In this document: piece after piece, positions 49,675 to 64,000 of the stretch
How the letters are laid out: each line of letters begins with the position of its first letter
How positions within the stretch are numbered: the stretch's first letter is position 1
From: Lachnospiraceae bacterium
GTDB lineage: Bacteria > Bacillota > Clostridia > Lachnospirales > Lachnospiraceae
Assembly (NCBI GenBank): GCA_017938285.1
Contig: JAGBBW010000061.1
Location: forward strand, 7,627-71,626
Length of the DNA: 64,000 nt
Direction: 5' to 3'
The notes under the pieces: generated by a model
The model's database searches: none
What the model saw: only the letters and a program-made list of their open reading frames with translations
Told to the model about the DNA's origin: nothing
Translations under genes and position numbers: made by a program

Positions 49675-49686
49675 TTACTCATATAT

Positions 49687-49760
49687 GTAAGGGCAAAACA
49701 GCTGAAAAACTGTGACGCAAAGCTATAGGGCCTGTAAAAGGGCAGCCAGTTACCGTAAGG
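49687..49760 (+). promoter_or_regulatory. c-di-GMP-I (GEMM-I) riboswitch aptamer
   Basis: GGGCAAAAC-AGCU-GAAAA-ACUGU-GACGCAAAGCU...GGGCC...GGCAGCCAGUUACCG parallels the Vc2-type consensus GGCAAAcc..GAAA..GGGACGCAAAGCC...GGUUACCG. Confidence 0.75.
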
Positions 49761-50186: not shown

Positions 50187-51902
50187 ATGGAAAAAAGAAA
50201 CTTGAAAGAAAAAATCAAAAACTGGCCAATTAAGAAGAAATTTTTGTTTTCCTTTGGAACGATTATTGCATCCACGTTCCTTTTAATTGTAGTTCTGCTG
50301 ATCGGTTTAAAAACAGTGGAATCTAATGTGGAGGGGCTTTTTGACGGACCAACCACCAGCACTTTCTATATCGGGGATATCCGTTTTGGTCTGGTAGCCA
50401 ACCAGAGGGCGATTAATCGTGTGATTGCGGTTGGTGACAGTGTGCTGGCAGAAGAAGAAACCAGGATGGAAGAGAATATCAAATTAGTGCAGGAGGCGTA
50501 TGATGTCCTGACAGGAACGCTGATTTCCAAGGATAACAAAGTAATACTGGAAGAAATTAAGGTATTGCTGGATACAGAGGAAACATACCGTGCAGAACTG
50601 CTCCGGCTGTTGAAAACAGGGGATATGGCAGGAGCCAATGACTATGATGAAGAGTATTACACTCCTCTCGTAGATGAAATCAGAACAAAAGCAGACAATC
50701 TGGACCAGAGTATTTATGCGGTAGGTGAAGATTACAAGAACAGTTCGGCGACTACAGCGTATGTAATGATTGCAGTAGGCGTGATTCTGCTTATTCTGAT
50801 TACATCCATTGCGGTTGGCTTAACCAGAATCATGACAAAGAGCATTGCAGAGCCGGTAGCCCAGATTGAAGCAGCGGCAAAGCAGTTAAGAGTAGGTGAT
50901 TTGTCCCATGGTAATGCCATTACATACGAATCCGAGGATGAACTTGGTGTACTTGCTAAGAATATGAAGGAATCCATTAATATTCTAGATGGTTACGTTA
51001 AGGATATCTGTATGAATTTTGAAAAAGTTGCCAAAGGTGATTTGAGTCAGGATTTTGATTTGATTATTGACTATCTTGGTGATTTTGCAAGTATTAAATC
51101 TTCCTTTGTGGTTATTCTGAAGGAATTTAATGAAACACTGCGTCAGATGAAAGAAACTTCTGCCCAGGTAGACCACGGTTCGGAAGAAGTAGCCGGTGCA
51201 GCAAATGATCTGGCAACCGGAACCAGTGAGCAGGCAAGTGCTGTGGAGGAGCTTACGGCGACAATTGCAACTGTAAGCAGTATGGCGGATGAAGCAGCAA
51301 AACAGGCGGAAGTTGCTTATGGCAACATGATGGAAGCAGTAACAGAGGCCCAGGAAGAAAAGGCACAGATGCAGGAATTACAGGCAGAGATGATTCGCAT
51401 TAAGGAAATTTCCAGCGAAATTGAAGCAATCGTTACTTCGATTGAAGAAATAGCGGACCAGACCAGTCTGCTTTCCTTAAATGCTTCCATTGAGGCAGCA
51501 AGAGCCGGTGATGCAGGCCGAGGTTTTGCTGTGGTAGCGGATCAGATTGGCAAGCTGGCAACAGACAGTGCCCGTGCGGTTGTAGATACCAAGGAACTGA
51601 TTAGTAAGACCGTAGAAGAAATTGACAAGGGCAACAAGGTAACAGAGAAGACGGCAGCAGGTTTTGAGCGCATTATCAGGGAACTGGAAAACTTTGCGGA
51701 ATCTGCAAAGGCAAACAGCGAAGTGTCCAGAACCCAGTCCATGGCATTACAGCAGGTGGAAGAGGGCGTAGACCAGATTACCCTTGTAACCCAGCAGAAT
51801 GCTGCATCCTCCGAAGAATGTTCTGCCATCAGTGAAGAACTGGCAGCAAGAGCAACGGAGATGGACAGCCTGGTGGGCAGATTTACACTGTATGAGAAGT
51901 AG
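50187..51902 (+). CDS. Methyl-accepting chemotaxis protein
   Basis: 571 aa. TM segment, sensor domain, TM segment, HAMP, then a signalling domain with [33 protein letters not shown]. Confidence 0.9.
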
Positions 51903-51956: not shown

Positions 51957-52200
51957 ACATAAATAACGTGACGTTGAAAAGGAATAGTACAAAATCCGGC
52001 GTGTCCAGAGAAGAAGCGGTTGGTGAAAGCTTCCCACAAACGGTTTTGGAACCTGCCTTGGAGTCCTGCATGAAAGTGCAGCGTAGGTCTGCGATAAAGA
52101 CAAACGAGAGAATGAACCAGCAATGGTTTATTAATTAGGGTGGTACCGCCGAATGTTCGGTCCCTTTTGCAGCAGAAAAGCATGCAAAAGGGACCTTTTT
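51957..52200 (+). promoter_or_regulatory. T-box leader (probably proline-specific) with terminator
   Basis: AGAGA and GGTGAAAG stem I elements. A candidate CCU specifier in aaCCUGcc. T-box sequence AATTAGGGTGGTACCGCC at 52133-52150. Terminator GGTCCCTTTTGC...GCAAAAGGGACC followed by TTTTT. Confidence 0.8.
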
Positions 52201-52263
52201 GCGCGATAAAAACGCGACCAAAAAAGCGTCAGCTTTTGAGGTGCTTATCGCAAAATGAAAAAC

Positions 52264-52374
52264 AAGGAGGAAAATCCTCTGCCCGCATAAGGGTGGGCAT
52301 TTTTCTCCGAAAAACAAGGAGGAAAATCCTCTGCCCGCATGAGGGCGGGCATTTTTCTCCGAAAAACAAGGAGG
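52264..52374 (+). repeat. Two tandem 52-bp units plus a third SD-box: (AAGGAGG-AAAATCCTCT-GCCCGC-N6-G(C/T)GGGC-ATTTTTCTCCGAAAAAC), ending at the proS RBS
   Basis: AAGGAGG occurs at 52264, 52316 and 52368, giving a 52-bp period. The hairpin is preserved in unit 1 through a G-U pair. The core matches 1271-1342. Confidence 0.7.
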
Positions 52375-52380
52375 ATTAGT

Positions 52381-53988: not shown

Positions 53989-54429
53989 ATGGAAAATGCA
54001 GTTTTAAATCAGATTAAATATTTGTTTGAGGAAAAAGGAATCCGTTATTACAGCGATGACAGTGAGAGAATCGGAGCAAAGTTTTCTGATTTTGTTTTAA
54101 TGTTTCATGTAACAGAAGAAGCCCTTTCTTTTAAAATGTATTTGGAAGAAAAGGCTTCTGCACAGTGCAGACCGGATGTGCTGGAATATTTGAACTACGC
54201 AAACCAGATCATGAAGGAAGGACATTTCATACTGGATAACGAAGGGGACATATACTTTATTATTTACACGGAGCGTTCGACAGACAGTTACATATCGGAT
54301 GGCCGTATCATGGACATACTGACAAAAGGTTACTCTGCGAATGAGATGTTTCATGAGGAACTGAAAACGGTAATTGCCGGAACAGCGACTCCGCTGGATG
54401 CGATTCGGAATACGATTAGTAACAGGTAA
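53989..54429 (+). CDS. Small cytoplasmic protein, possibly YbjN/T3SS-chaperone-like fold
   Basis: 146 aa, RBS CAGGAGGAA. The alpha/beta pattern and length resemble the YbjN family, but this is a weak judgement from memory. Confidence 0.35.
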   Translation: MENAVLNQIKYLFEEKGIRYYSDDSERIGAKFSDFVLMFHVTEEALSFKMYLEEKASAQCRPDVLEYLNYANQIMKEGHFILDNEGDIYFIIYTERSTDSYISDGRIMDILTKGYSANEMFHEELKTVIAGTATPLDAIRNTISNR

Positions 54430-54504
54430 AGGGAAAGAGGTCCAGGGATTGAATAACATCGAAAAAGAGAATATAATAGAAAAGGCAGGAAACTGGTGAA
54501 GCAA

Positions 54505-54533
54505 TTGAAAATTTGCAGAAAAAGCAATATAAT
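54505..54533 (+). promoter_or_regulatory. Sigma-A promoter upstream of the multi-ATPase operon
   Basis: TTGAAA at 54505-54510, 17 nt spacer, TATAAT at 54528-54533. Confidence 0.45.
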
Positions 54534-54587
54534 AGATGGTGAAATCGTTACGAATTATCGGTAATTTGCAAAAGGAGAAGAGGAAAA

Positions 54588-57500
54588 ATGCTGGATAGTA
54601 CGGTAAAGAATATGCTGTTTTTGTATGTAGACCACCTGGTTTGTCTTAGTATGGAAAACGGGGATAGAATAGAGGGAGAACTGCTGGCAGTGGAGGAGGA
54701 TGCGGTTGCCCTTTTGAAGGAAGGGGAAGTAAAACGGTATTCTTTTGCTGAGCTGACAGACGTGCGTTATGTGGGAAATCTGACAGATTACCGGACATTT
54801 GCTGGTACTGGAGAAATTGACAATACGTTCGTTTTTGATATATCTGCATGCAGTGATGAAACTATCATTGAGAAAATTAAATATCAGGAATATAACTGTA
54901 CCATGAGCTGCCATCTTGTCTTTGATATGCAGATTAAAGCTGCGGATATAAGGGTGGAGCGTTTTTACCATGTCAGGAATATGGATATCCTTGGTAAGTC
55001 AAACTATCTGTATACCTTTACAAACGGAACCTGTCTGTCTGGTATGCTGATGGAGTCTGGTGAAACCTATTCCCTTGTCTGTAATAATCGTACTATCATG
55101 GAATTTGACTGGAAAGAAGTGGAAGACATTACACGCCAGCCGGTAATTAATGATGAGATTACCGTTTATATGAAAACAGGAGAAGTATACAGTGGTATAG
55201 TTTGTGCCGCACAGCAGGAATTCTGCAATATTATGCTGGGCAGAACGCAGCTGCAGAAGATTCGTTATGCAGAAATGAAACGGCTCTTTTTTCATGGAGA
55301 GGTTACGGAATGCATGCCGGGAAAGCATGGTGTAGTAGACAATATCTATCGGTGTAAATATCCGCATTATCTTCAGAGTATGGAGCAGGCAAAGCTGTTT
55401 CAGTATGGTGCAAAGGTAATGTATATGGTAGGCATTAATCAGCGGGCGCAGGTGGCCAAGGAAGTAGAAGTTCTGATTTCTGAAACAGAGAAAGCGGAAG
55501 CAGAACATAAAATCGGAATTATTCTGACGATTGGTCCGATTACACAAACCGGAAGCTCCCAGAAGTGGTTTGGATACATCGGAAATAAATATGTCATGCA
55601 GTCCTGTGGAGAACCGGTGAGGGGGGATCTTGTATTTTATCCTGATGCGCAGCTTTTTACAAGATCACTGAATCTGCAGGAAAATATTTATGTGGTGAGG
55701 TATACCCCGACCGGACAGCTGAATGAACGGGGGCAGCAGCCGGTGACCATACTGGAGATGGTAGAAGCTATTCCCAAAAAATATATTGGTATGGTTGAAA
55801 TTGTGGATGGTGTCATTGTCAAAACACCGTTGTATCAGGCAGTGATTGGGGGCAGTCTCACGGGTTCTGTGTATAAAAATAAAGAAGTGGAAATTATCTG
55901 CAAGGATGGAAGTACCTGCACCGGAATCGTAGCAGAGCATAATGAGAAAGGCTTTACGCTGCATAATGGAGAACTAATCGATTATACCAGAATTGAAAAT
56001 GTCAGAATTTTTGACAGGGTTTCTTCGTATGGTGATAATGGGGTTGGTTTTACTGTTTCAGGCTTACGTTTTCATGTGAATGACAGCGCACTGGATATGG
56101 AGTCGGTGGAGATGTTAGCTGCCAACGTGAGAATATCTTATGTACTGGCGAATAATCTGTCAGGCAATGACCGGAAAGTTTTATGGAAATTTTTCAATAT
56201 TGTAGAGATGAAAGTATGGAAGGATTCTGTTCAGAAACCTGTGGAGCAGCCGGAAGGGGATTCTGAGCAGAAGATAAAGGAACTGCCGGAGAAATCTCCG
56301 GTTCAGGAAATTGCAGTGCTGTCGGAAAAGGATAATGGAATGTTATTAAAACAGCGGTTCGGCGAAATCCCAGGTGGTATAGAGGGAGGATACGGTATTC
56401 TGCATAAGGATTTTCGTAATCCGAAGGTTGTTTATGTCAACAGCACTTACCGTAATCCAAGGCTGACCACGGAAAAATGTGGAAAAGGACTGCCTTTTAA
56501 TGCCGCAGAAGTAAAGATACATGCCGAGGAACTGTTTGTACCGGGAGATTTTTACATTGTAAGGTATAAGGAGGTTTCCGGGGAAGCATATCGTTATGAA
56601 ATAGAATTTGTTGGTAAAATTAGAAAGTTGCCTTCCCTGATGGCGATTGATATTGAAGACAGTAACAGACTGTTTATCAGAATACAGGAGGGAGTTTCTG
56701 CAATTCCACAGAAGCCGGTAGTATATCAGAACAGCGTGCCGGAAGTAACAGATGGAGAAACGGTATTTTATGAATATGAGCGGATTTTAGGTAATGCAGA
56801 AGCAAATTATTATGGTCTTACCATGGAAGCAGTGATTCATGCGGCAGAAAAGGCGGGACTCTCCATAACAGACCAGGATATTGCTGTATGGCGGTTTGGT
56901 GTTTTGGAAAACAAAGATTATGCCATGACCATAGGCATATTGAACAGGGGAGTAGAGTTTGAACTTTCCCTTGTGGAACAGAAAGCCTTTAATATTCTAA
57001 AGACAGCAAAGCGTAAAATGATGGTGGCGTTTACCTGCAAAAACGGAAAAATTGCGAAGGTGAAGCTGGTACCGGACGAAGTATTGAAACTGCTGTGCTG
57101 GCAGAAAGGAACCGTAACTTCCTGTGGTGCTAATGACAAACACATCATAATTGACAAAAAAATTGTTCATTACTTATCTGTGCGGAGTGATGGACTGGTT
57201 AATAATTATGCAAAAAACGGACGGCTGGAAAAAGAAGAGGTTTATGTAAAGGTAGTACATTATGCGGAGTGGGGAGAAAAGAAACGACTGGTTTCTGCTG
57301 CCGCAGAAATACATCTGCAGGTTGAAATGGCAGATATTTTATATAATACAACACAGAACCGGTATATGGCATATAGAAACCAGACCCAGTTTGTTGCCCT
57401 GGAGGATGTGAGTTCGGAGAACCTTGCAGCATTAAAAAATACTTCGGTAGGTGTGCGTTTTGTACCAGAACCGGGAAGTAACCAGCTGAAAGCGTATCTT

Positions 57501-59636
57501 ATGGACAAGATTACAGAAAAAATTTCTCCGGAAGAAAATTTTCAGAGAAAAGTGGAAGCATTAAGGGACGATTTTAAGAAAGCAGCGGGTTCGCTGGATA
57601 TTTACCGCAGTACGGCAGAATGTCTTGCAGGCCGTACAGAATATCTCTTAAAGGAACTGGGCGGCGACAGGGAAGAACTGTTCCATGTACTGGTGGAATT
57701 GAAGGAACTCAGTGGTAATCTGGCGGCAAAGCAGGGAAGTGATTATACGGTGTTCCAGCTGGTACTGGAAAAAGCAGAGGGAGACATTTCAGAAATGCAG
57801 AGAGCATTAAAATGGGAAACCGAAGTAGAACAGATTCTGGCAGAATTACTGGACAGACTGGAAGCAATGGTCGGAAAGGATCTGAATGATTTATATAAAA
57901 AGTCTGCTCCTAAAATAAGCTGCCGCCCCAATGTAACGGAAATTGGGAAGTCAGAGCAGTATCTGTATATTCTGCTTTCCAATGAAGGAAATAAACAGCC
58001 GGCGGCTAAGGTGAGAGTCATTTTGGAGGCTACAGAACTGCCGGATGGTATGCTGCAGAGGGAGGTAGAACTGACAGCCGCCTTAGAAGCAGGTGCAGAG
58101 GCAATCCAGGTACCATTCCGTCTTGCGGTTTCTGATTTTAATGGAGATGGTTTCCTTGTAAACTGGACGATTAAGTACCAGTGTATTACCGGATATCAGG
58201 ATGGAAGGAATGAGCTTGGGGATCTATCCACTGAAGGAACATTCGAACTTCTGATTGCAAATGGAGAGCAGAACAAAAACAGAGAGGCAAAGAATCCGTA
58301 TGCAGAACCGGCAAAAGGAATGCCGCTGAAGACCAGGGAAATGTTTTTTGGACGGGTGAGACAACTGGTAAATTTCTGGAACCATGTACTGGACAAAGAA
58401 ACAGGAAAGCTGATACCGGGAAAAATGACGATTATTTATGGTCTGAGGCGTTCCGGCAAAAGCAGTCTGGTGCACCAGATTATGAATACGCTGAATACGA
58501 ATGAAATGGCAGCAGATGTACGGCAGAATGAAGATCTGGAGATAGCCTGGAAGGAAACAGAAAAACCATATGTTATCTATTTCCGGAATATGGGAGGAGA
58601 TTTTACCTATTATCAGGAACCGCTCTGGTTTGAGCAGTCATTGTATTTTGCAATCATGGATCAGTTAGGCAGGCAGATACCAGGGGAACTGAAGCAGGAA
58701 CTGCTGGCAGAGTGCGGCTGCATCCGGGAATCAGAAAAGAGCAGTGCGGCCAGGATGTCTTTGGATAAGATTATTGAGAATCCGGTCACAATGAAATTAC
58801 AGTTTAAGAAGTTTATTGAGGGATTCCGGAGACTGGATCAGGACAGACATAAGCTGGTGCTGATTATGGATGAATTTACAACACTTTGTGTCAAGGCAGC
58901 AAATTATACAGCAGAAGGGTATAAGAACTGGGAGAATGTTCCAACGTTTATAAATTCCTTTGCGGACATGGGATTTATTCAGATTGTTATCGGACATTCT
59001 TATATGATGACATCGTTGGAGCGGCTTGGAATTCTGAATCAGACCGTAGAAAATATCGACCAGTTAAAGCTGGAGGTATCGGAACTAGATTCTGTAGAAG
59101 CAAAAAAATTAATTATTGAGCCGATGGAAAGTGCCTTTGGCTGCAAACCATTTGATTCGACCATGGGTGTGAAAGCGGTGGAAAATTTACTGGATTTATC
59201 AGGAAGGCTGCCATTGATGATTATGCGCCTGTGTAACAGACTGTTTGAATATTTTAGAAGGTCAGACAGTGCCAGAATCGTTACTGATGATGTCCAGAAT
59301 ATGCTGCTGCACTGGTTTAAGGACCAGGAGAGTGTCACAAAGTTCAATACCAGCATTTTTGATGTGCTGATTGAGGAGGACAGCGTTGGCGGATGCCTGG
59401 AGGATCGTGATACATGGAAGTTCCTGGAGCATGTAGCCAAGCTTTCCATGAAGAGTGCAAATCGTGACTGTGATGCGGAAGAAGCGTTTAAAACGTGTGA
59501 ATCCCTGGCAAAAGAACGATGTGAAACGATAGCCAAGGAGCTGGATAAGCGGGGCGTTATTTCCCGGGAAGATGGAAGAATTAAAATTTTTGTTGGCCTG
59601 TTTGGAAAATACAATCAGTATAAAAAAGGATGGTAA
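54588..59636 (+). CDS. Giant 1682-aa protein: about 950 aa of repeated small beta-barrel-like modules, a helical/coiled-coil segment, a beta-sandwich-like segment, a PF01637-like (GxRRxGKS) ATPase and a C-terminal winged helix
   Basis: RBS AAAGGAGAAGAGG. Walker A IIYGLRRSGKSSL (nt 58440-58466), preceded by FFGRVRQL. Walker B LVLIMDEF (about nt 58855-58878). The C-terminal IAKELDKRGVISREDGRIKIF looks like a winged helix. The N-terminal modules are described in the findings. Confidence 0.85.
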   Translation: MLDSTVKNMLFLYVDHLVCLSMENGDRIEGELLAVEEDAVALLKEGEVKRYSFAELTDVRYVGNLTDYRTFAGTGEIDNTFVFDISACSDETIIEKIKYQEYNCTMSCHLVFDMQIKAADIRVERFYHVRNMDILGKSNYLYTFTNGTCLSGMLMESGETYSLVCNNRTIMEFDWKEVEDITRQPVINDEITVYMKTGEVYSGIVCAAQQEFCNIMLGRTQLQKIRYAEMKRLFFHGEVTECMPGKHGVVDNIYRCKYPHYLQSMEQAKLFQYGAKVMYMVGINQRAQVAKEVEVLISETEKAEAEHKIGIILTIGPITQTGSSQKWFGYIGNKYVMQSCGEPVRGDLVFYPDAQLFTRSLNLQENIYVVRYTPTGQLNERGQQPVTILEMVEAIPKKYIGMVEIVDGVIVKTPLYQAVIGGSLTGSVYKNKEVEIICKDGSTCTGIVAEHNEKGFTLHNGELIDYTRIENVRIFDRVSSYGDNGVGFTVSGLRFHVNDSALDMESVEMLAANVRISYVLANNLSGNDRKVLWKFFNIVEMKVWKDSVQKPVEQPEGDSEQKIKELPEKSPVQEIAVLSEKDNGMLLKQRFGEIPGGIEGGYGILHKDFRNPKVVYVNSTYRNPRLTTEKCGKGLPFNAAEVKIHAEELFVPGDFYIVRYKEVSGEAYRYEIEFVGKIRKLPSLMAIDIEDSNRLFIRIQEGVSAIPQKPVVYQNSVPEVTDGETVFYEYERILGNAEANYYGLTMEAVIHAAEKAGLSITDQDIAVWRFGVLENKDYAMTIGILNRGVEFELSLVEQKAFNILKTAKRKMMVAFTCKNGKIAKVKLVPDEVLKLLCWQKGTVTSCGANDKHIIIDKKIVHYLSVRSDGLVNNYAKNGRLEKEEVYVKVVHYAEWGEKKRLVSAAAEIHLQVEMADILYNTTQNRYMAYRNQTQFVALEDVSSENLAALKNTSVGVRFVPEPGSNQLKAYLMDKITEKISPEENFQRKVEALRDDFKKAAGSLDIYRSTAECLAGRTEYLLKELGGDREELFHVLVELKELSGNLAAKQGSDYTVFQLVLEKAEGDISEMQRALKWETEVEQILAELLDRLEAMVGKDLNDLYKKSAPKISCRPNVTEIGKSEQYLYILLSNEGNKQPAAKVRVILEATELPDGMLQREVELTAALEAGAEAIQVPFRLAVSDFNGDGFLVNWTIKYQCITGYQDGRNELGDLSTEGTFELLIANGEQNKNREAKNPYAEPAKGMPLKTREMFFGRVRQLVNFWNHVLDKETGKLIPGKMTIIYGLRRSGKSSLVHQIMNTLNTNEMAADVRQNEDLEIAWKETEKPYVIYFRNMGGDFTYYQEPLWFEQSLYFAIMDQLGRQIPGELKQELLAECGCIRESEKSSAARMSLDKIIENPVTMKLQFKKFIEGFRRLDQDRHKLVLIMDEFTTLCVKAANYTAEGYKNWENVPTFINSFADMGFIQIVIGHSYMMTSLERLGILNQTVENIDQLKLEVSELDSVEAKKLIIEPMESAFGCKPFDSTMGVKAVENLLDLSGRLPLMIMRLCNRLFEYFRRSDSARIVTDDVQNMLLHWFKDQESVTKFNTSIFDVLIEEDSVGGCLEDRDTWKFLEHVAKLSMKSANRDCDAEEAFKTCESLAKERCETIAKELDKRGVISREDGRIKIFVGLFGKYNQYKKGW

Positions 59637-59640
59637 TAGA

Positions 59641-61824
59641 ATGGAGAGTATTACAACAGAAAGAACGAGCGGGTTTATTGGCAGGGTAAATCTGTTTGAT
59701 GACATAAGAAAAGGTGTTTTTGTAACTCAGTTGGGAACGGGCACCTGTTATTCCCTTATGGGATTAAATGGAATTGGAAAAACACGCCTTGTGGAGGAAT
59801 GGGCAGAGAACTGGAGGAAGGATACCAGTAAGGACCCGAATATCTATTATTTCAGTACCCGTTTATCCGACGCAGACAGTGAGTGGAGCTACTGGGTAAA
59901 GCTGATTCAGGATGTCAGAAGGGTAATTCGTGAGGAGCAGTTAAGAAAAGCACCAAATCCGGAAGAAAACCTGGTGAATGAGATTTTAGACATATATAAA
60001 GAGATAGACACGAATCCTGCATTGTATTCGGAAATAGCAGGACTGAGGAATATGCAGAGAGACCGGTATTTCCGAAATTTTTTCGAGGTTTTTGAAGAAC
60101 TGGGAATTCATCTGATTATTACCATAGATGAGTTTGATGCAGCAGCAACCCTGTTTCCAAAGGAAAAGGGAGATGGCAGTTTCTTTCGAAAACTTTACAG
60201 TCTGTCTGGCAAAGCAGGAAAAAAGAATCTGACCATTTTGATTATTTCCAGACGGCGTATCGGAACCCTGGCACATGGGATGGAGCATGGTTCCGATATT
60301 GAAGATGCGTATCCTCCGTATGCCCTGAAAGGATTTACTTACCAGGAGCTGATCGAATATTTTCAGGGACTGGATAATTACAGTGCCATGACGGATGAGG
60401 CATTTAATGCAGTAATTGGATATTGTGGCACACATCCGGGGCTTCTGACTACCATGGGAGCTGCCATTGATTCCGTACCGTCCGGAAGTCCAATTGATGT
60501 GGATACCCTGTTTCTGCAGCGGAGACTGCCACTGGAAAAAACATTTGAGCGGATGCAGAAGCTGATGAAGCTGGAATACGTGGATGCAGAGAAGGAAAGA
60601 AACTGTATTGCTCCGTTCCGGCAGGCATTTCTTGGTCCGGTGTATGATTCGAGACTGGCATCCAGACTGAAAATGCTGCAGGATTATGGTTTTATAACCC
60701 ACAGGGGAGAGTACGAGGAAAATTTATATGAACTGGCAGGCTGGAAAAAAGAAGGAATGGAAACGGATGTATTCCGTTCTTATGCGGAGCAGCATGCGTA
60801 TGAACCGGTATCTCCTTACTTTGTGCTCTATATGAAATATAATGTTTTGCCGGAAGAAATGGACGACCTGGACAGAAGGAAGAGTTTTACGGAAGTGAAT
60901 ATCCGGAAAATGCTTGTAGACGTATATAAAAGTAAGTATGGGCCGGCGTGGAGAGCAGAGATGGAACAGGAAAAGGAGGGAAGCGATAAGGTTGCCAGGA
61001 TATTTAGTGGTAAGCAAACCTATCTGAAGAATATGGACAAGACTGCGGCAGCCAATCGTTCGGATATGGAGTATACCATTCTGAATGTGCTGGCCTTCCA
61101 TGAATATGCGCAGATTATTATAAAATACTGGGATCAGGCAAAGGTATATTTCCAGTCCTACGAACCGGAAGAGCTGGAAAAAGACTTTTTCTTCCTGTCT
61201 ATAACAAGAAATACGATAGAACATGAAAATGCAGAAATGTTGAATAACGAATATTGTGAAGTTGCTGCAAAGATTTGTGAAAGAATCAATAAGGGAATTG
61301 AAGAGGGACGGGGAGGTATTGTAAGAAATAAACCAGCCCGTCCGGCAGATGCTCCGGGGTTCAGTGGCTGGGGAGAACTGACGGCTGGAACTCCATTTCA
61401 AAACAGGCAGGGAAACAACTCACAGAATACAGTTTCTGGAAACAGCGCCGGACAGAATCAGGAGAGTCAGGCAGCACAGGGGAATACGCAGACGGAGGGA
61501 GCGGTTACCCAGGTACCGGTCAGCTGGGGCTATAACTATGAAGAAGTATTGGGACGTATGAGTGGGTCCTCCCAGGCGTTTGAGATTACATATAATTTTG
61601 AAAGAACATGCAGTTTTTCATTAACGGATGGTACAACAGTACGTTATGCAAAAGGAAATGTTGTGCTGGATGGAAGAAAGTATGTGGTTGCAATGGAAAT
61701 GGGAAGACACCGCTTTGAGAAAGACACGCCGGAAATGGCAGAAGTGTATGCTGTCTTTGACTATACCGAGGAGAAAAATGGAAGACCGGTTCCTCGTAAA
61801 GCATTTATGGGCAGATTAAAATAA
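59641..61824 (+). CDS. STAND-type NTPase fused to a HEPN (Swt1-like) domain, a Q/N/G/S-rich linker and a small C-terminal beta domain
   Basis: 727 aa from MESITTERTSGFIGRV. Walker A GLNGIGKTRL (nt 59761-59790). Walker B LIITIDEFD. HEPN motif RNTIEH at nt 61207-61224. The start lies 4 nt after the stop of the giant gene. Confidence 0.8.
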   Translation: MESITTERTSGFIGRVNLFDDIRKGVFVTQLGTGTCYSLMGLNGIGKTRLVEEWAENWRKDTSKDPNIYYFSTRLSDADSEWSYWVKLIQDVRRVIREEQLRKAPNPEENLVNEILDIYKEIDTNPALYSEIAGLRNMQRDRYFRNFFEVFEELGIHLIITIDEFDAAATLFPKEKGDGSFFRKLYSLSGKAGKKNLTILIISRRRIGTLAHGMEHGSDIEDAYPPYALKGFTYQELIEYFQGLDNYSAMTDEAFNAVIGYCGTHPGLLTTMGAAIDSVPSGSPIDVDTLFLQRRLPLEKTFERMQKLMKLEYVDAEKERNCIAPFRQAFLGPVYDSRLASRLKMLQDYGFITHRGEYEENLYELAGWKKEGMETDVFRSYAEQHAYEPVSPYFVLYMKYNVLPEEMDDLDRRKSFTEVNIRKMLVDVYKSKYGPAWRAEMEQEKEGSDKVARIFSGKQTYLKNMDKTAAANRSDMEYTILNVLAFHEYAQIIIKYWDQAKVYFQSYEPEELEKDFFFLSITRNTIEHENAEMLNNEYCEVAAKICERINKGIEEGRGGIVRNKPARPADAPGFSGWGELTAGTPFQNRQGNNSQNTVSGNSAGQNQESQAAQGNTQTEGAVTQVPVSWGYNYEEVLGRMSGSSQAFEITYNFERTCSFSLTDGTTVRYAKGNVVLDGRKYVVAMEMGRHRFEKDTPEMAEVYAVFDYTEEKNGRPVPRKAFMGRLK

Positions 61825-61833
61825 CTAAGTCTC

Positions 61834-61866
61834 CGGCGGGGAAAACGCTTTAATCAGCGTTTCTCT
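61834..61866 (+). repeat. 33-nt motif, copy 2 (cggcggggaaaaCgctttaatcagcgtttcTct), in the 73-nt gap before the SpoVK-like AAA+ gene
   Basis: 31/33 identical to 13140-13172. Hairpin GAAACGC-TTTAATCA-GCGTTTC. Confidence 0.6.
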
Positions 61867-61897
61867 ATATTGGCTATGAGCTTTTGGGGGAATAAGG

Positions 61898-62881
61898 ATG
61901 GAAGAACAGAGTTTTATGAGTGGCATGAAAAATAGTGCGGAAGTGAATGCTGGTCTGGAGGAAACTATTTTTGATTCACCGGAAGTGAGAGGAATCCGCC
62001 AGATAGAAGAAGAACTTTACCAGCCGGGAGAAATTCCGGACAGCTCTGTGGTGCAGCAGATTTATGAAGTGAAAAAGCGGATGGAGCTGTTCGATAAAAA
62101 AAAGGCGTTGGAAAACTGGAAAACAGGAGAGGTTCCGGAAAAGAAAAAAACCATTCCGAATTTTGTCATTATGGGAGGTCCGGGAAGTGGAAAGACCACA
62201 CTGGCAAAAAGGCTGGCTGCTTATCTGGGCAGTGACTGCGGGAAGCGGGCAAATGTGATAGGAAGTGTGCAGAGACAGTGGATTCTGATAAAATCTGCCT
62301 CCGATTTAAAGGGCACCCATGTAGGACAGACGGCGGAGCGGGTGTACAATATGCTGGTAAATGCAGCAAAGAACAAGCAGATTATTTTTATTGATGAAGC
62401 ATATCACCTTCAAAATGATGAATTTGGACGGGAGGCGGTGGATATGCTGCTTCCCCTGTTGTCCGGAGACAGGGATGTGATTGAAAAGGCAGCAGACGGG
62501 CAGGTCGTTTCCTATTCCTTTTCAGAACATGGGACTGCCGTACCACCAATCTGGTTTGGCGGTTATGAGCATGAAATGAGGAAAATGCTCTCGGAAAATC
62601 CAGGGTTATACCGGAGAATGATAAAATTGTCCCTGTCCACACCCGGAGTAAAGGAACTGTTTCGGAACTTATGTATGCTTTCGAAGGACAACCAGGACTG
62701 TCTCACCGTCTTTCTGGATAATGAAAAAGAAATCAAGGATTATTTTGCCTGGGGGATGCGGCCGGAATATGTGGATTATTTTTCTTCCTATGCCGGTGTG
62801 AGAAGCATGTATGAGACAGCGGAGGTGTATTTGTCCAGGTCCATGGAAAAATCCCAGGCAGGAAGCTGCTGCACCGGATGA
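61898..62881 (+). CDS. AAA+ ATPase of the SpoVK/CbbX/EccA type
   Basis: 327 aa. FVIMGGPGSGKTTLAKRLA, IIFIDEAYHL, FGREAVDMLLPLL, and GGYEHEMRKMLSENPGLYRRM matches the family layout (A/GGY...NPGLxSRF). Confidence 0.8.
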   Translation: MEEQSFMSGMKNSAEVNAGLEETIFDSPEVRGIRQIEEELYQPGEIPDSSVVQQIYEVKKRMELFDKKKALENWKTGEVPEKKKTIPNFVIMGGPGSGKTTLAKRLAAYLGSDCGKRANVIGSVQRQWILIKSASDLKGTHVGQTAERVYNMLVNAAKNKQIIFIDEAYHLQNDEFGREAVDMLLPLLSGDRDVIEKAADGQVVSYSFSEHGTAVPPIWFGGYEHEMRKMLSENPGLYRRMIKLSLSTPGVKELFRNLCMLSKDNQDCLTVFLDNEKEIKDYFAWGMRPEYVDYFSSYAGVRSMYETAEVYLSRSMEKSQAGSCCTG

Positions 62882-64000
62882 TAGAAGAGAAAAAGGCAGA
62901 GATAAAGAAACAGTACAAAGCAGTGCTGACAGATATTAAAAGTGCAGAGTTTGAAATAGAAACTGACATTACAGCAACCCTGGAAGACAGGATAGGAAAC
63001 AGGGAAACTGTGGATACGCTGCGTTCCATTATAGAATGTCTGTACCGGAACGCCACTAGGCAGGAAATTGCAGATGCCCCGAAAGGAGTACTGTTTACAG
63101 GTCCGTCCGGAACCGGAAAAACCTCTCTGGCAAGGGCGGTAGCCGGAGAAATTCAATTACGGTTTGAACAGAATATAGAGCAGAATCTGAAAGTGGCATT
63201 TATTTCCACAGTAGCTTCGGAACTAAGAGAAAGCGGAAAAATGAAGCGTCTGTTTGAAGAGGCAGAGGAGTACGATGTCTGTATTATTTTCATTGACGAA
63301 CTGGATGCTATTGGAAGAAAACGGGATATGCCAGGTGCCAGACCAGAGCTGTTATATCAGTTGTTAAAAGAAATGGATGAAGTTGAGGCAAGGAAAAATG
63401 TGTTTGTAATCGGTGCTACCAACGATCCCCGGATACTGGATCCGGCACTCTTACGTCCGGGACGGTTGGAACGTTTTCTGGAGCTTTCCCTGCCAGACCT
63501 GGAAGAGAGAATACTGCTGCTGCGAAAATATATCATGGAGCTTCCTTTTTTGCAGGAGGCATTGCAGGAGGAAAAAAACAGGGAAGAGATGGAACGGTAT
63601 CTGACGGGACATGCGCAGCTGCTCATGGGATATTCCCAGGCGGATATGAAGGGGCTGGTGAACCGGGCCGCCATGGAATGTATGGGAAAAATGTCAGATA
63701 TTCACAGGTATGATAATAGTATCGTGACATTTTACCGTCATATTTTCGGGATGCTGATCGTGAAAAATTTTCAGCTCAAGACTCCGGTGAATTACCAGAA
63801 GGTGGCATTTTATGCGGAACGTTATGAGGAGGTATCAGCGTTGGCGGTACATCAACTGGGACATTATGTTGTAAATGAGTCTTTTTCGGTCCGAAAGGAT
63901 ACGGAAAAAGTTTCGATTTTGTTCCGGGATGATTCCTTTGCCTATATGGACTGGTGGCGGGAATATACTCCGACGGACCGGGAAAAGCTGCTGCGCCAGA
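62878..64000 (+). CDS. Soluble FtsH-like AAA+ protein with a degenerate M41 zinc motif (HQLGH); 3' end lies outside the window
   Basis: ATGA overlap with the previous gene. GVLFTGPSGTGKTSLARAVAGE, IIFIDELDAIG, GATNDPRILDPALLRPGRLER, then AVHQLGHYVV at nt 63850-63864 where FtsH has HEAGH. No N-terminal TM segments. Not in the ORF track because no stop codon occurs before the window end. Confidence 0.8.
   Translation, partial: MIEEKKAEIKKQYKAVLTDIKSAEFEIETDITATLEDRIGNRETVDTLRSIIECLYRNATRQEIADAPKGVLFTGPSGTGKTSLARAVAGEIQLRFEQNIEQNLKVAFISTVASELRESGKMKRLFEEAEEYDVCIIFIDELDAIGRKRDMPGARPELLYQLLKEMDEVEARKNVFVIGATNDPRILDPALLRPGRLERFLELSLPDLEERILLLRKYIMELPFLQEALQEEKNREEMERYLTGHAQLLMGYSQADMKGLVNRAAMECMGKMSDIHRYDNSIVTFYRHIFGMLIVKNFQLKTPVNYQKVAFYAERYEEVSALAVHQLGHYVVNESFSVRKDTEKVSILFRDDSFAYMDWWREYTPTDREKLLRQ

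Follow-up and report, generated by a model that had tools for sequence, protein, structure and literature searches.

A conserved pair of STAND-type ATPase genes with a predicted HEPN effector as a candidate conflict system of Lachnospiraceae

Do four consecutive nucleoside triphosphatase (NTPase) genes of a Lachnospiraceae bacterium form a single conflict system, or do only some of them belong together? The question is raised by a stretch of 64,000 nucleotides (nt) of contig JAGBBW010000061.1 (assembly GCA_017938285.1), hereafter called the window, for which a sequence-only reading had proposed a four-gene NTPase operon. The region studied here covers positions 54505-64000 of the + strand, all coordinates being those of the whole stretch. 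The four open reading frames (ORFs) and the gaps between them were located as claimed: gene A (54588-59636, 1682 amino acids (aa)), gene B (59641-61824, 727 aa from the second ATG of the ORF 59572-61824), ORF C (61898-62881, 327 aa) and ORF D (62878 to the window end, 374 codons in the window), with 4 nt between A and B and 73 nt between B and C. The operon itself did not hold, since C and D are the two parts of one frameshifted gene, here called CD, and the set is not syntenic in 18 related loci. What remains is the pair A+B, which we propose to encode a sensor STAND protein (A) and an executor STAND protein (B).

The A+B pair is rare, and its distribution is extremely patchy. In the database, a protein 100% identical to B is annotated only as 'ATP-binding protein [Lachnospiraceae bacterium]', and the identical protein is encoded in the Lachnospiraceae metagenome-assembled genome (MAG) GCA_017625115.1 and in four other assemblies (together L001-L005). 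A word-indexed search with B returned 14 clusters among 5.8 billion proteins. A profile search of 1.84 billion representatives with alignment A1, which contains 14 B-family sequences, gave 867 matches at E <= 1e-3, of which 527 reach E <= 1e-10 and 148 reach E <= 1e-30; the majority are 500-650 aa long and span the ATPase through the HEPN region. The genomic contexts of the B family were taken from the clusters of the word-index search and from 8 loci of GTDB genomes; for these genomes, scanning the contigs with the B sequence alone gave no match and the 8 loci were obtained by rescanning with the A1 profile. In every locus with upstream DNA, i.e. in 12 distinct contexts besides the window's species, an A-like gene is located directly upstream of the B-like gene. 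The junctions vary from a 4-nt overlap to a 30-nt gap, the B-like neighbours of the A-like giants have 500-730 aa, and the contexts come from Lachnospiraceae, Acetatifactor, Eubacteriales, Ca. Enterenecus and uncultured Clostridia. The same arrangement is found for two remote B homologues, P0189 and P0247, which are preceded at 2-24 nt by genes for giant proteins (1332 and 1534 aa), in which the A profile aligns to the middle and the C-terminal ATPase half (E 1e-71 and 6e-68). Furthermore, a Clostridiales MAG contains an A-B fusion in one ORF adjoining ruvAB (P0253, 1995 aa), of which aa 636-1468 match the A profile (E 6e-47) and aa 1507-1992 the B profile (E 2e-41). That the genes stay adjacent across such deep divergence, and are fused in one case, argues strongly for A and B acting together, and the pair is very probably the functional unit.

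To delimit this unit, A, B, CD, the upstream YbjN and prolyl-tRNA synthetase (ProRS) genes and all the downstream genes of the MAG were compared by tblastn with the 18 related loci. No homologue of CD, g359, g198, SSB, TraG, the other downstream genes, YbjN or ProRS was found in these 18 A/B loci. Checking the co-occurrence of the genes, as the first reading had advised, divides its four-gene set: A and B are always adjacent, whereas CD is absent from the other A-B loci. A lack of synteny in other genomes was among the outcomes that, by the first reading itself, would refute the four-gene system, and this outcome was obtained. The YbjN-like gene upstream of A (53989-54429) was also considered as a part of the module and was rejected, having no homologue in the other A-B loci.

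The B protein starts with an ATPase followed by a lid and a winged helix (59674-60810, aa 12-390), as delineated with Pfam, an AlphaFold2 (AF2) model and Foldseek. It has a Walker A motif GLNGIGKT (59761-59784, from aa 41), a Walker B motif IDEFD (aa 162-166) and an SRRR motif (aa 203-206). The invariant columns of A1 include G41, G46, K47 and T48 of the first motif, D163, E164, F165 and D166 of the second and S203, R204 and R205 of the third, and further downstream R523, H528 and N530. The B protein of the window matches the Pfam families AAA_16 (E 4e-6), ATPase_2 (5e-6) and NACHT (2.6e-4); for ATPase_2, AAA_16 and NACHT, the window's A and B score 19-28 bits versus cut-offs of 27-33, and AAA_16 matches all 14 B-family members (best E 1.5e-12). 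The AF2 model of B has a mean pLDDT (the per-residue confidence of the model) of 68, with values of 70-95 over aa 20-370. Its top Foldseek matches in the PDB are Orc1/Cdc6 (2qby_A, E 2.3e-5) and human, yeast and fly ORC subunits, followed by the NB-ARC domains of NRC1 and NRC4, Dark and RdrA, with E values of 2e-5 to 4e-3 overall and 360-470 aligned columns. As judged from this model, the N-terminus of B is an ATPase-lid-winged-helix module of ORC/STAND type.

This module is followed by a predicted Swt1-like HEPN domain (60823-61320, aa ~395-560) with the motif RNTIEH (61207-61224, aa 523-528), which is of the catalytic type R-x4-H. R523 and H528 are the sole invariant columns in an alignment of 75 diverse B homologues, 72 of which have R[ND]xxxH. 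The first helix of the domain likewise contains an invariant T-E-x3-R motif, and the model of the region is all-helical with a pLDDT above 90. Pfam HEPN_Swt1 matches 12 of the 14 B-family members and, when 41 domain sequences were scanned alone, 28 of these (best E 2.2e-7). RiboL-PSP-HEPN (6 of the 41, best E 5.1e-8), Abi_2 (6) and HEPN_Apea (5) were found as well, and the SAV2148 and MAE_28990 HEPN families are matched by some of the domain sequences. Against the PDB, the B sequence profile gave only P-loop matches and the profile of the HEPN domain only HepS, at E 0.3 and over the motif. We accept that B carries a Swt1-like HEPN domain, a predicted RNase, on the strength of the motif and of profiles at the level of the family; the call for the window's B is made because of this family-level evidence and not from its own sequence. 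The remainder of B (61321-61821) consists of a linker rich in Q, N, S and G and a beta-rich C-terminal domain without assigned fold (AF2 pLDDT below 50), which differs from the shorter C-terminal domain of most homologues. This beta domain may be S1/OB-like; its kinship with the repeats of A described below was considered and rejected (hhalign E 0.35). Two other members of the B family have several B-type ATPase modules in tandem, three in P0183 (1525 aa) and two in P0205 (1056 aa), the first ones with weaker P-loop regions; after these come a HEPN-like region, in which the motif is R-D-x3-H, and additional beta domains at the C-terminus. The family thus explores intramolecular multi-STAND arrangements as well.

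For the product of gene A we propose three parts: small beta-barrel repeats arrayed at the N-terminus, a helical middle region and, at the C-terminus, a P-loop ATPase. The ATPase core (58335-59087, aa ~1250-1500) is of ATPase_2/AAA_16 type according to Pfam, hhalign and motifs, and contains the Walker A motif GLRRSGKS (58440-58463, from aa 1285) and the Walker B motif MDEF (58866-58877, from aa 1427). A terminal winged helix is suggested by the domain layout only. In A2, an alignment of 11 A-family sequences, G1285, G1290, K1291, D1428 and E1429 are invariant. The window's A matches ATPase_2 (E 2e-5), AAA_14 (5e-5) and AAA_16 (2e-3), all below cut-off, and at the level of the family AAA_16 matches 11 of the 11 members and ATPase_2 and nSTAND1 6 each. 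The ATPase cores of A and B can be aligned by hhalign (87% probability, E 4e-6), while BLASTP of the one ATPase versus the other is not significant.

The first ~1000 residues of A are internally repetitive, as seen with sliced hhalign comparisons, in agreement with the huge repeat-rich N-terminus noticed in the first reading. Three segments, aa 5-66, 185-280 and 425-520, are mutually homologous with 95-98% probability. Repeat 1 (54600-54785, aa ~5-66) would be Sm/LSm-like by its alignment to the other repeats, matching segments aa ~161-280 and ~401-520 with 95-97% probability; repeat 2 (55140-55427, aa ~185-280) would be Sm/LSm-like by LSM matches and hhalign, matching the slice aa 441-520 with 98%; and repeat 3 (55860-56147, aa ~425-520) would consist of an Sm-like part and then a possible cold-shock-like part, as suggested by NCBIfam, a PDB profile and hhalign. 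A weaker fourth copy is present near aa 735-795, and a second type of repeat may exist at aa 325-400 and 600-680 (60-72% probability by hhalign). Profile hints point to the nature of these barrels: Pfam LSM matches the window's A at aa 187-221 (E 6.6e-4, 19.8 bits versus a cut-off of 23.4), NCBIfam MM0924 matches repeat 3 at aa 429-472 (E 0.0057), and in the family LSM is found in 6 of the 11 members, SM-ATX in 5 and the SH3 domain RimP_C in 4 (best E 9.7e-8). Among PDB chains, the A profile matches CSD-Cmr6 ('CSD domain-containing Cmr6', E 4.7e-4), CSD (0.17), Hfq (0.56) and, at profile positions 183-228, an Lsm chain (0.05). These hints are consistent with each other and below threshold, and the N-terminus of A is possibly made of Sm/LSm-like and, again possibly, cold-shock-like barrels. 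Our reading of the remote relatives is that one Sm-like barrel is kept and is followed by clear CSD-like repeats (L029) or by long helical repeats (L031, P0253); in distant members the N-terminal array would be swapped for TPR-like helices. With its variable N-terminus on a constant ATPase, A resembles the sensors of STAND systems.

The genomic surroundings of the pair were examined for links with defence. In PADLOC-DB v2, which was the sole defence-system library searched, no model matches B (0 hits), nor P0247, P0253 or the giant of L031 (0 hits), and the matches of A are only of P-loop length, with E values of at least 4e-4. The combination of a STAND or ORC-like NTPase with a HEPN domain, which had been recognised as a hallmark of conflict systems, is thus present here in a form that is not in this library. 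In the complete genome that contains locus L031, the pair is flanked by genes for a GmrSD/Orf5/HEC-06-like protein, a candidate PDC-M09A and a methyl-directed restriction enzyme of type IV, and in L018 a type II methyltransferase is encoded upstream of the pair. In two unrelated genomes, WYL-domain proteins are encoded directly downstream of A-B (L019:12001-13924 and L022:11992-14889), one of 331 aa (WYL and WCX) followed by a DUF7916 protein, the other of 965 aa with WYL at its C-terminus; both proteins may regulate the pair. Restriction, methylase or WYL neighbours are present in 4 contexts. The pair of the window's species lies at the border of a stretch that encodes SSB, a coupling protein of TraG/VirD4 type and a DUF4116 protein. 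The genes after B vary by locus (MatE and AsnA; a hexapeptide transferase; TrkH/TrkA; AraC-GNAT; an acyltransferase; WYL), and since the flanks differ between genomes the pair is mobile-cassette-like. Four features form the case for a conflict system: a patchy distribution, insertion sites that vary, a HEPN effector and the STAND logic. The evidence for defence coming from the context is moderate, and A+B probably acts in phage defence, a phenotype that we infer.

STAND NTPases pass from monomer to oligomer on binding of ligand and nucleotide, and HEPN RNases, such as RNase L, Ire1, Csm6 and Cas13, need dimerisation, their active site being formed across the dimer. Starting from the observed linkage, fusion, motif conservation and family assignments, we propose that A and B are the two components of a STAND (NLR-like) conflict system, most likely an abortive one directed against phages. 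In this model, A would be the sensor, its N-terminal barrels binding a cue derived from the invader. Given the types of barrel, a single-stranded nucleic acid would be the first candidate for the cue, a phage protein being the alternative. Binding of the cue would license the ATP-dependent assembly of a hetero-oligomer from the C-terminal STAND module of A and the N-terminal one of B. As B clusters, its HEPN domains would meet to form a composite R-x4-H active site, and cellular and/or invader RNA would be cut, leading to growth arrest. We consider this sensor/executor model as a whole to be somewhat better than an even bet.

Several observations weigh against it. The B protein of the window has no Pfam HEPN match at E <= 0.1, and Foldseek with the model of its HEPN region gave no match at E <= 1e-3 in the PDB and BFVD, the best ones being generic helical bundles. 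All the Sm and CSD assignments for the window's A are below curated thresholds. The ATPase cores of A and B are only distantly alike, and their hetero-oligomerisation is purely inferred. The order of the domains departs from that of Avs-type STANDs, A being sensor-NTPase and B NTPase-effector. No relative of B was found in the phage and plasmid collections (tblastn with B) or in IMG/VR (scan with A1), and most neighbourhoods of the pair contain ordinary metabolic and transport genes (MatE, AsnA, TrkHA, LacZ, ruvAB). A bolder version, which we find rather doubtful, would make A+B the bacterial counterpart of paired sensor/helper NLRs. A would directly sense single-stranded RNA or DNA of the invader, and not a phage protein, via Sm/LSm and cold-shock-like barrels, and would nucleate a resistosome-like hetero-ring with a catalytically active B that is a HEPN RNase only within the ring; the system would be distinct from all tested Avs, bNACHT and nSTAND families.

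That no known system matches, as the sequence-only reading had stated, is true of PADLOC and less so of the literature. A computational study of 2021 had predicted a two-gene counter-invader system of the same architecture, nSTAND2 (Kaur, Iyer, Burroughs, Aravind 2021, eLife 10:e70394, PMC8195603; section 'GT4 domains', Fig. 6C and Fig. 6-source data 1), although membership of A+B by sequence is not significant. In this mobile operon both products contain STAND domains; the P-loop of one product, a fusion with GT4 or HEPN, is eroded, and the products were predicted to form a toroidal hetero-multimer (PMC8195603). Its architecture was written as '??+STAND+wHTH -> STAND+wHTH+helical+HEPN', and it was listed from Proteobacteria (PMC8195603). 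No experimental work on nSTAND2 was found in a literature search, and tblastn of an E. coli nSTAND2 sequence gave no match in plasmids and phages. A+B could be a divergent Firmicute branch of this system, in which the effector-bearing STAND would be a catalytically dead adaptor of the toroidal hetero-multimer. Both have a giant STAND gene first and a STAND+HEPN gene second (product of ~600 aa in nSTAND2), tightly coupled and mobile or patchy, with gene order, sizes and domain order alike. In six nSTAND2 loci that we fetched from metagenomes, giants of 1925-1980 aa overlap proteins of 609-736 aa with R-x4-H near the C-terminus. The hhalign alignments are collinear through the Walker B motif, the RxR/SRRR motif and the GxP lid, and for the giants over the whole STAND module (340 columns). 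However, the similarity is not significant: the published alignment versus A1 gives a hhalign E value of 0.019 (2.5% probability), the small nSTAND2 proteins versus B 0.11 and the giants versus A2 0.0038 (8.8% probability); the hmmsearch E values are at least 0.017. The second protein has no GxxxxGK[ST] in either the published alignment or the fetched loci, i.e. the NTP motifs of the nSTAND2 effector STAND are eroded, while B has invariant Walker A and B motifs (GxxGxGKT and DEFD). In addition, the effector of nSTAND2 is either GT4 or HEPN, while the R..H of HEPN is kept in all examined relatives of B, the N-termini of the giants are unrelated to that of A, and Proteobacteria contrast with the Clostridia of the A+B family. 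The pair matches nSTAND2 in architecture, has no significant similarity to it in sequence and differs from it in the state of the P-loop, and we regard it as unlikely that A+B is a branch of this system.

Another explanation would take A+B out of immunity. The pair could be a regulated housekeeping or stress RNase, with the Sm/CSD array binding cellular RNA for RNA or ribosome surveillance, or an addiction pair of toxin-antitoxin type, with A keeping B in check. HEPN domains are found in RNases outside immunity too, barrels of the Sm, Hfq, CSD and RimP types are typical of proteins binding cellular RNA and ribosomes, and the pair is chromosomal, with mostly housekeeping flanks, and not found on phages or plasmids. 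A housekeeping function does not agree well with so patchy a distribution (14 clusters among 5.8 billion proteins, and 148 matches at E <= 1e-30 among 1.84 billion), with varying insertion sites, with the swapping of the sensor domain between relatives or with the restriction, WYL and methylase neighbours in 4 contexts. These four features together fit accessory conflict genes better, and the housekeeping or addiction explanation is quite improbable.

That all four ORFs, A, B, C and D, form one co-functional system in which AAA+ unfoldase-like proteins aid the STAND/HEPN pair is very improbable, because the points in its favour (same strand, short gaps, no convincing promoter and only a weak hairpin in the 73-nt B-C gap, an arrangement identical in six assemblies of one species) are outweighed by C and D being one gene split by a 1-nt deletion, by the 18 A/B loci being devoid of CD, g359, g198, SSB and TraG homologues, by CD homologues standing alone elsewhere, and by the disruption of CD in 2 of the 6 assemblies in which A and B are intact.

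The split of CD is seen by comparison with the five assemblies that carry the identical B. Over 14 kb, the window shares 99.6-99.98% identity with L001-L005, and each alignment has a single gap, the same in all. At 62859/62860 the window has a 1-nt deletion, GGC-AGG versus GGCAAGG in all five assemblies, located about 20 nt before the ATGA overlap that had been described between the third and fourth genes; this overlap is a product of the deletion. Because of this deletion, the third and fourth genes are one, giving three genes with four NTPase domains. CD, a tandem AAA+/M41-like gene (61898-64000, + strand), is an intact single ORF of 962 aa in L001, L002, L004 and L005. The frameshift is the reason why an exact look-up of protein C found no database record. 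In the window, CD appears to be broken between its AAA modules, either by mutation or by an assembly error. It is also disrupted in L003, where GAG is changed to TAG at codon 331 (L003:9499-9501), so that CD is disrupted independently in two of six near-identical assemblies, at sites 10 codons apart in the linker between the AAA modules, A and B being intact. In either assembly, translation of the second half could restart at an in-frame ATG. The double disruption could reflect relaxed selection, a tolerated split or assembly error.

The two AAA modules of CD, both recognised by Pfam AAA, are D1 (62162-62476) and D2 (63088-63489), at aa 89-193 and 398-531 of the 962-aa protein, and a Peptidase_M41-like stretch (aa 647-744, 30.5 bits versus a cut-off of 29.9) carries the motif HQLGH (~63850-63864). 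The earlier description of the third protein as SpoVK/CbbX-type and of the fourth as FtsH-like is right as to the AAA+ modules and goes too far as to the families. ORF C matches AAA, with SpoVK, EccA and CbbX far below their equivalog cut-offs, and ORF D has a strong AAA match and reaches 163 bits for FtsH (TIGR01241) versus a cut-off of 600; IteA of NCBIfam scores 62 versus 510 bits and SpoVK 59 versus 423. The PADLOC IetA models match the D2 module at 2e-24, over the generic AAA core only. The AAA+ modules of CD are of the classical clade, as in FtsH, IetA and SpoVK/CbbX, and CD also contains an M41-like domain. FtsH, however, has N-terminal transmembrane (TM) helices and HExxH, whereas CD has no TM segment and HQLGH, and IetAS includes an adjacent IetS serine protease, whereas no protease gene is adjacent to CD. 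On these grounds (cut-offs, HQLGH in place of HExxH, no TM segment, no IetS-like protease next to it) identification of CD as FtsH, IetA or SpoVK was rejected. The lack of a TM segment claimed for the fourth protein is confirmed by a maximal Kyte-Doolittle 19-mer of 1.1-1.3, and the same holds for all four proteins A, B, C and D, none of which has a TM-grade hydrophobic segment (maximum 1.1-1.3).

About 30 true homologues of CD were found, which occur without A/B. HQLGH is common to the three closest relatives, and the distant ones (35-43% identity, 1250-1440 aa; P0019-P0048 set) keep HEVGH and have an extra N-terminal extension of ~500 aa. Of two contexts of CD homologues, one is a defence-like neighbourhood (L024), with SACS/HATPase, RelA_SpoT-like and UvrD genes, and the other lies between smpB and rplS. 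The C-terminal ~120 aa of CD (aa 832-954; L001:14751-15143) resemble a stand-alone 128-aa gene (L024:4729-5097; tblastn E 1e-9), which is 3 kb upstream of the CD homologue and has a weak Response_reg match; CD may thus end in a receiver-like domain. CD is best regarded as a gene of its own, possibly decaying, for a soluble tandem-AAA+/M41-like protein, unrelated to A+B. Past the end of the window (L001:15212-21727), CD is followed by genes for a 359-aa protein, a 198-aa protein, SSB, a 250-aa protein, a TraG/VirD4-type coupling protein and a DUF4116 protein, and then by the gene for the CCA-adding enzyme. The 359-aa and 198-aa proteins have no family match; the HLEECEVC of the latter could be read as a zf-HC2 anti-sigma motif. 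This stretch looks like the degenerate remnant of a conjugative or mobilisable element.

As to the regulatory sites, TTGAAA-17-TATAAT is present upstream of gene A as claimed (54505-54533, + strand, 11/12 consensus match) and is a candidate for a sigma-70-like promoter by its consensus match only. A second candidate, TTGAAT-17-TATAAT (10/12), is located at 54449-54477 (+ strand). Promoter-like sites are slightly commoner across the region than in shuffled sequences (27 observed versus 19.5 +/- 5.3 expected). The gap between B and C contains a weak, terminator-like hairpin, AAACGCT/AGCGTTT (61843-61862, + strand; 7 bp, 3 G-C), which may mark the end of the A-B transcription unit. The hairpin reported for this gap is thus real, whereas a special folding or regulatory role is not borne out: the 73 nt fold no better than shuffled sequence (z = -0.66), Rfam gave no match in the gap, and the junction is present in no other species, so that the idea of a conserved regulatory element was dropped. 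The motifs GxRRxGKS, RNxxxH and HQxxH that had been pointed out in A, B and D exist as GLRRSGKS, RNTIEH and HQLGH, and the Pfam, NCBIfam and PADLOC matches agree with the earlier domain calls, all being below curated cut-offs except AAA. A and B have G+C contents of 42.9% and 44.1%, slightly less than the rest of the window (45.5%). Outside the region studied, a c-di-GMP-I riboswitch (Rfam RF01051, 63 bits versus a gathering score of 35) is found at 49682-49757, ~430 nt upstream of a gene for a methyl-accepting chemotaxis protein (50187-51902), and a T-box leader (RF00230, 120 bits) at 51965-52168, ahead of the prolyl-tRNA synthetase gene. The T-box is followed at 52257-52375 by 2.3 copies of a 52-nt unit (97% identity) that holds a G+C-rich hairpin with a T-run and AGGAGG and resembles a duplicated module of terminator and ribosome-binding site.

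How does the A+B pair compare with the known STAND systems? A recent survey distinguished 589 STAND clades, 198 of which are defence-associated, and the characterised Avs and bNACHT are single polypeptides that sense phage proteins (PMC13581612, Nature 2026). What A+B has in common with Avs and NLR-like proteins is the STAND core with its P-loop and winged helix, the large and variable sensor, the nuclease-type effector and the presumed logic by which ligand-triggered oligomerisation activates the effector. No PADLOC Avs or NLR model matches A+B. An Avs is one chain, with the effector at the N-terminus, the NTPase and the sensor at the C-terminus, whereas A+B consists of two proteins, each with an NTPase, in inverted order; and Avs sensors have TPR or WD40 repeats, whereas that of A would be a small beta-barrel array. 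Paired STAND NTPases with a HEPN effector were previously predicted computationally as nSTAND2, and the Clostridial A+B appears to be unnamed and is absent from PADLOC-DB v2. So far, a linked sensor/executor STAND pair in bacteria has only been predicted (nSTAND2, 2021), and A+B differs from this prediction by two intact P-loops and a sensor with barrels of RNA/single-stranded DNA type. Removing a false four-gene system and flagging the frameshift in the window leaves, for gut Lachnospiraceae, an unannotated candidate defence system that is now labelled only 'ATP-binding protein'. A conceptual parallel is offered by the sensor/helper NLR pairs of plants and animals (for example sensor NLR-NRC and NAIP-NLRC4; PMC9975940), in which a recognition STAND is linked to an executioner STAND, no homology being claimed beyond the STAND fold. 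If the proposed model is true, it becomes testable whether a STAND receptor can read nucleic acid directly, and whether prokaryotes, like plants and animals, have sensor/helper NLR pairs.

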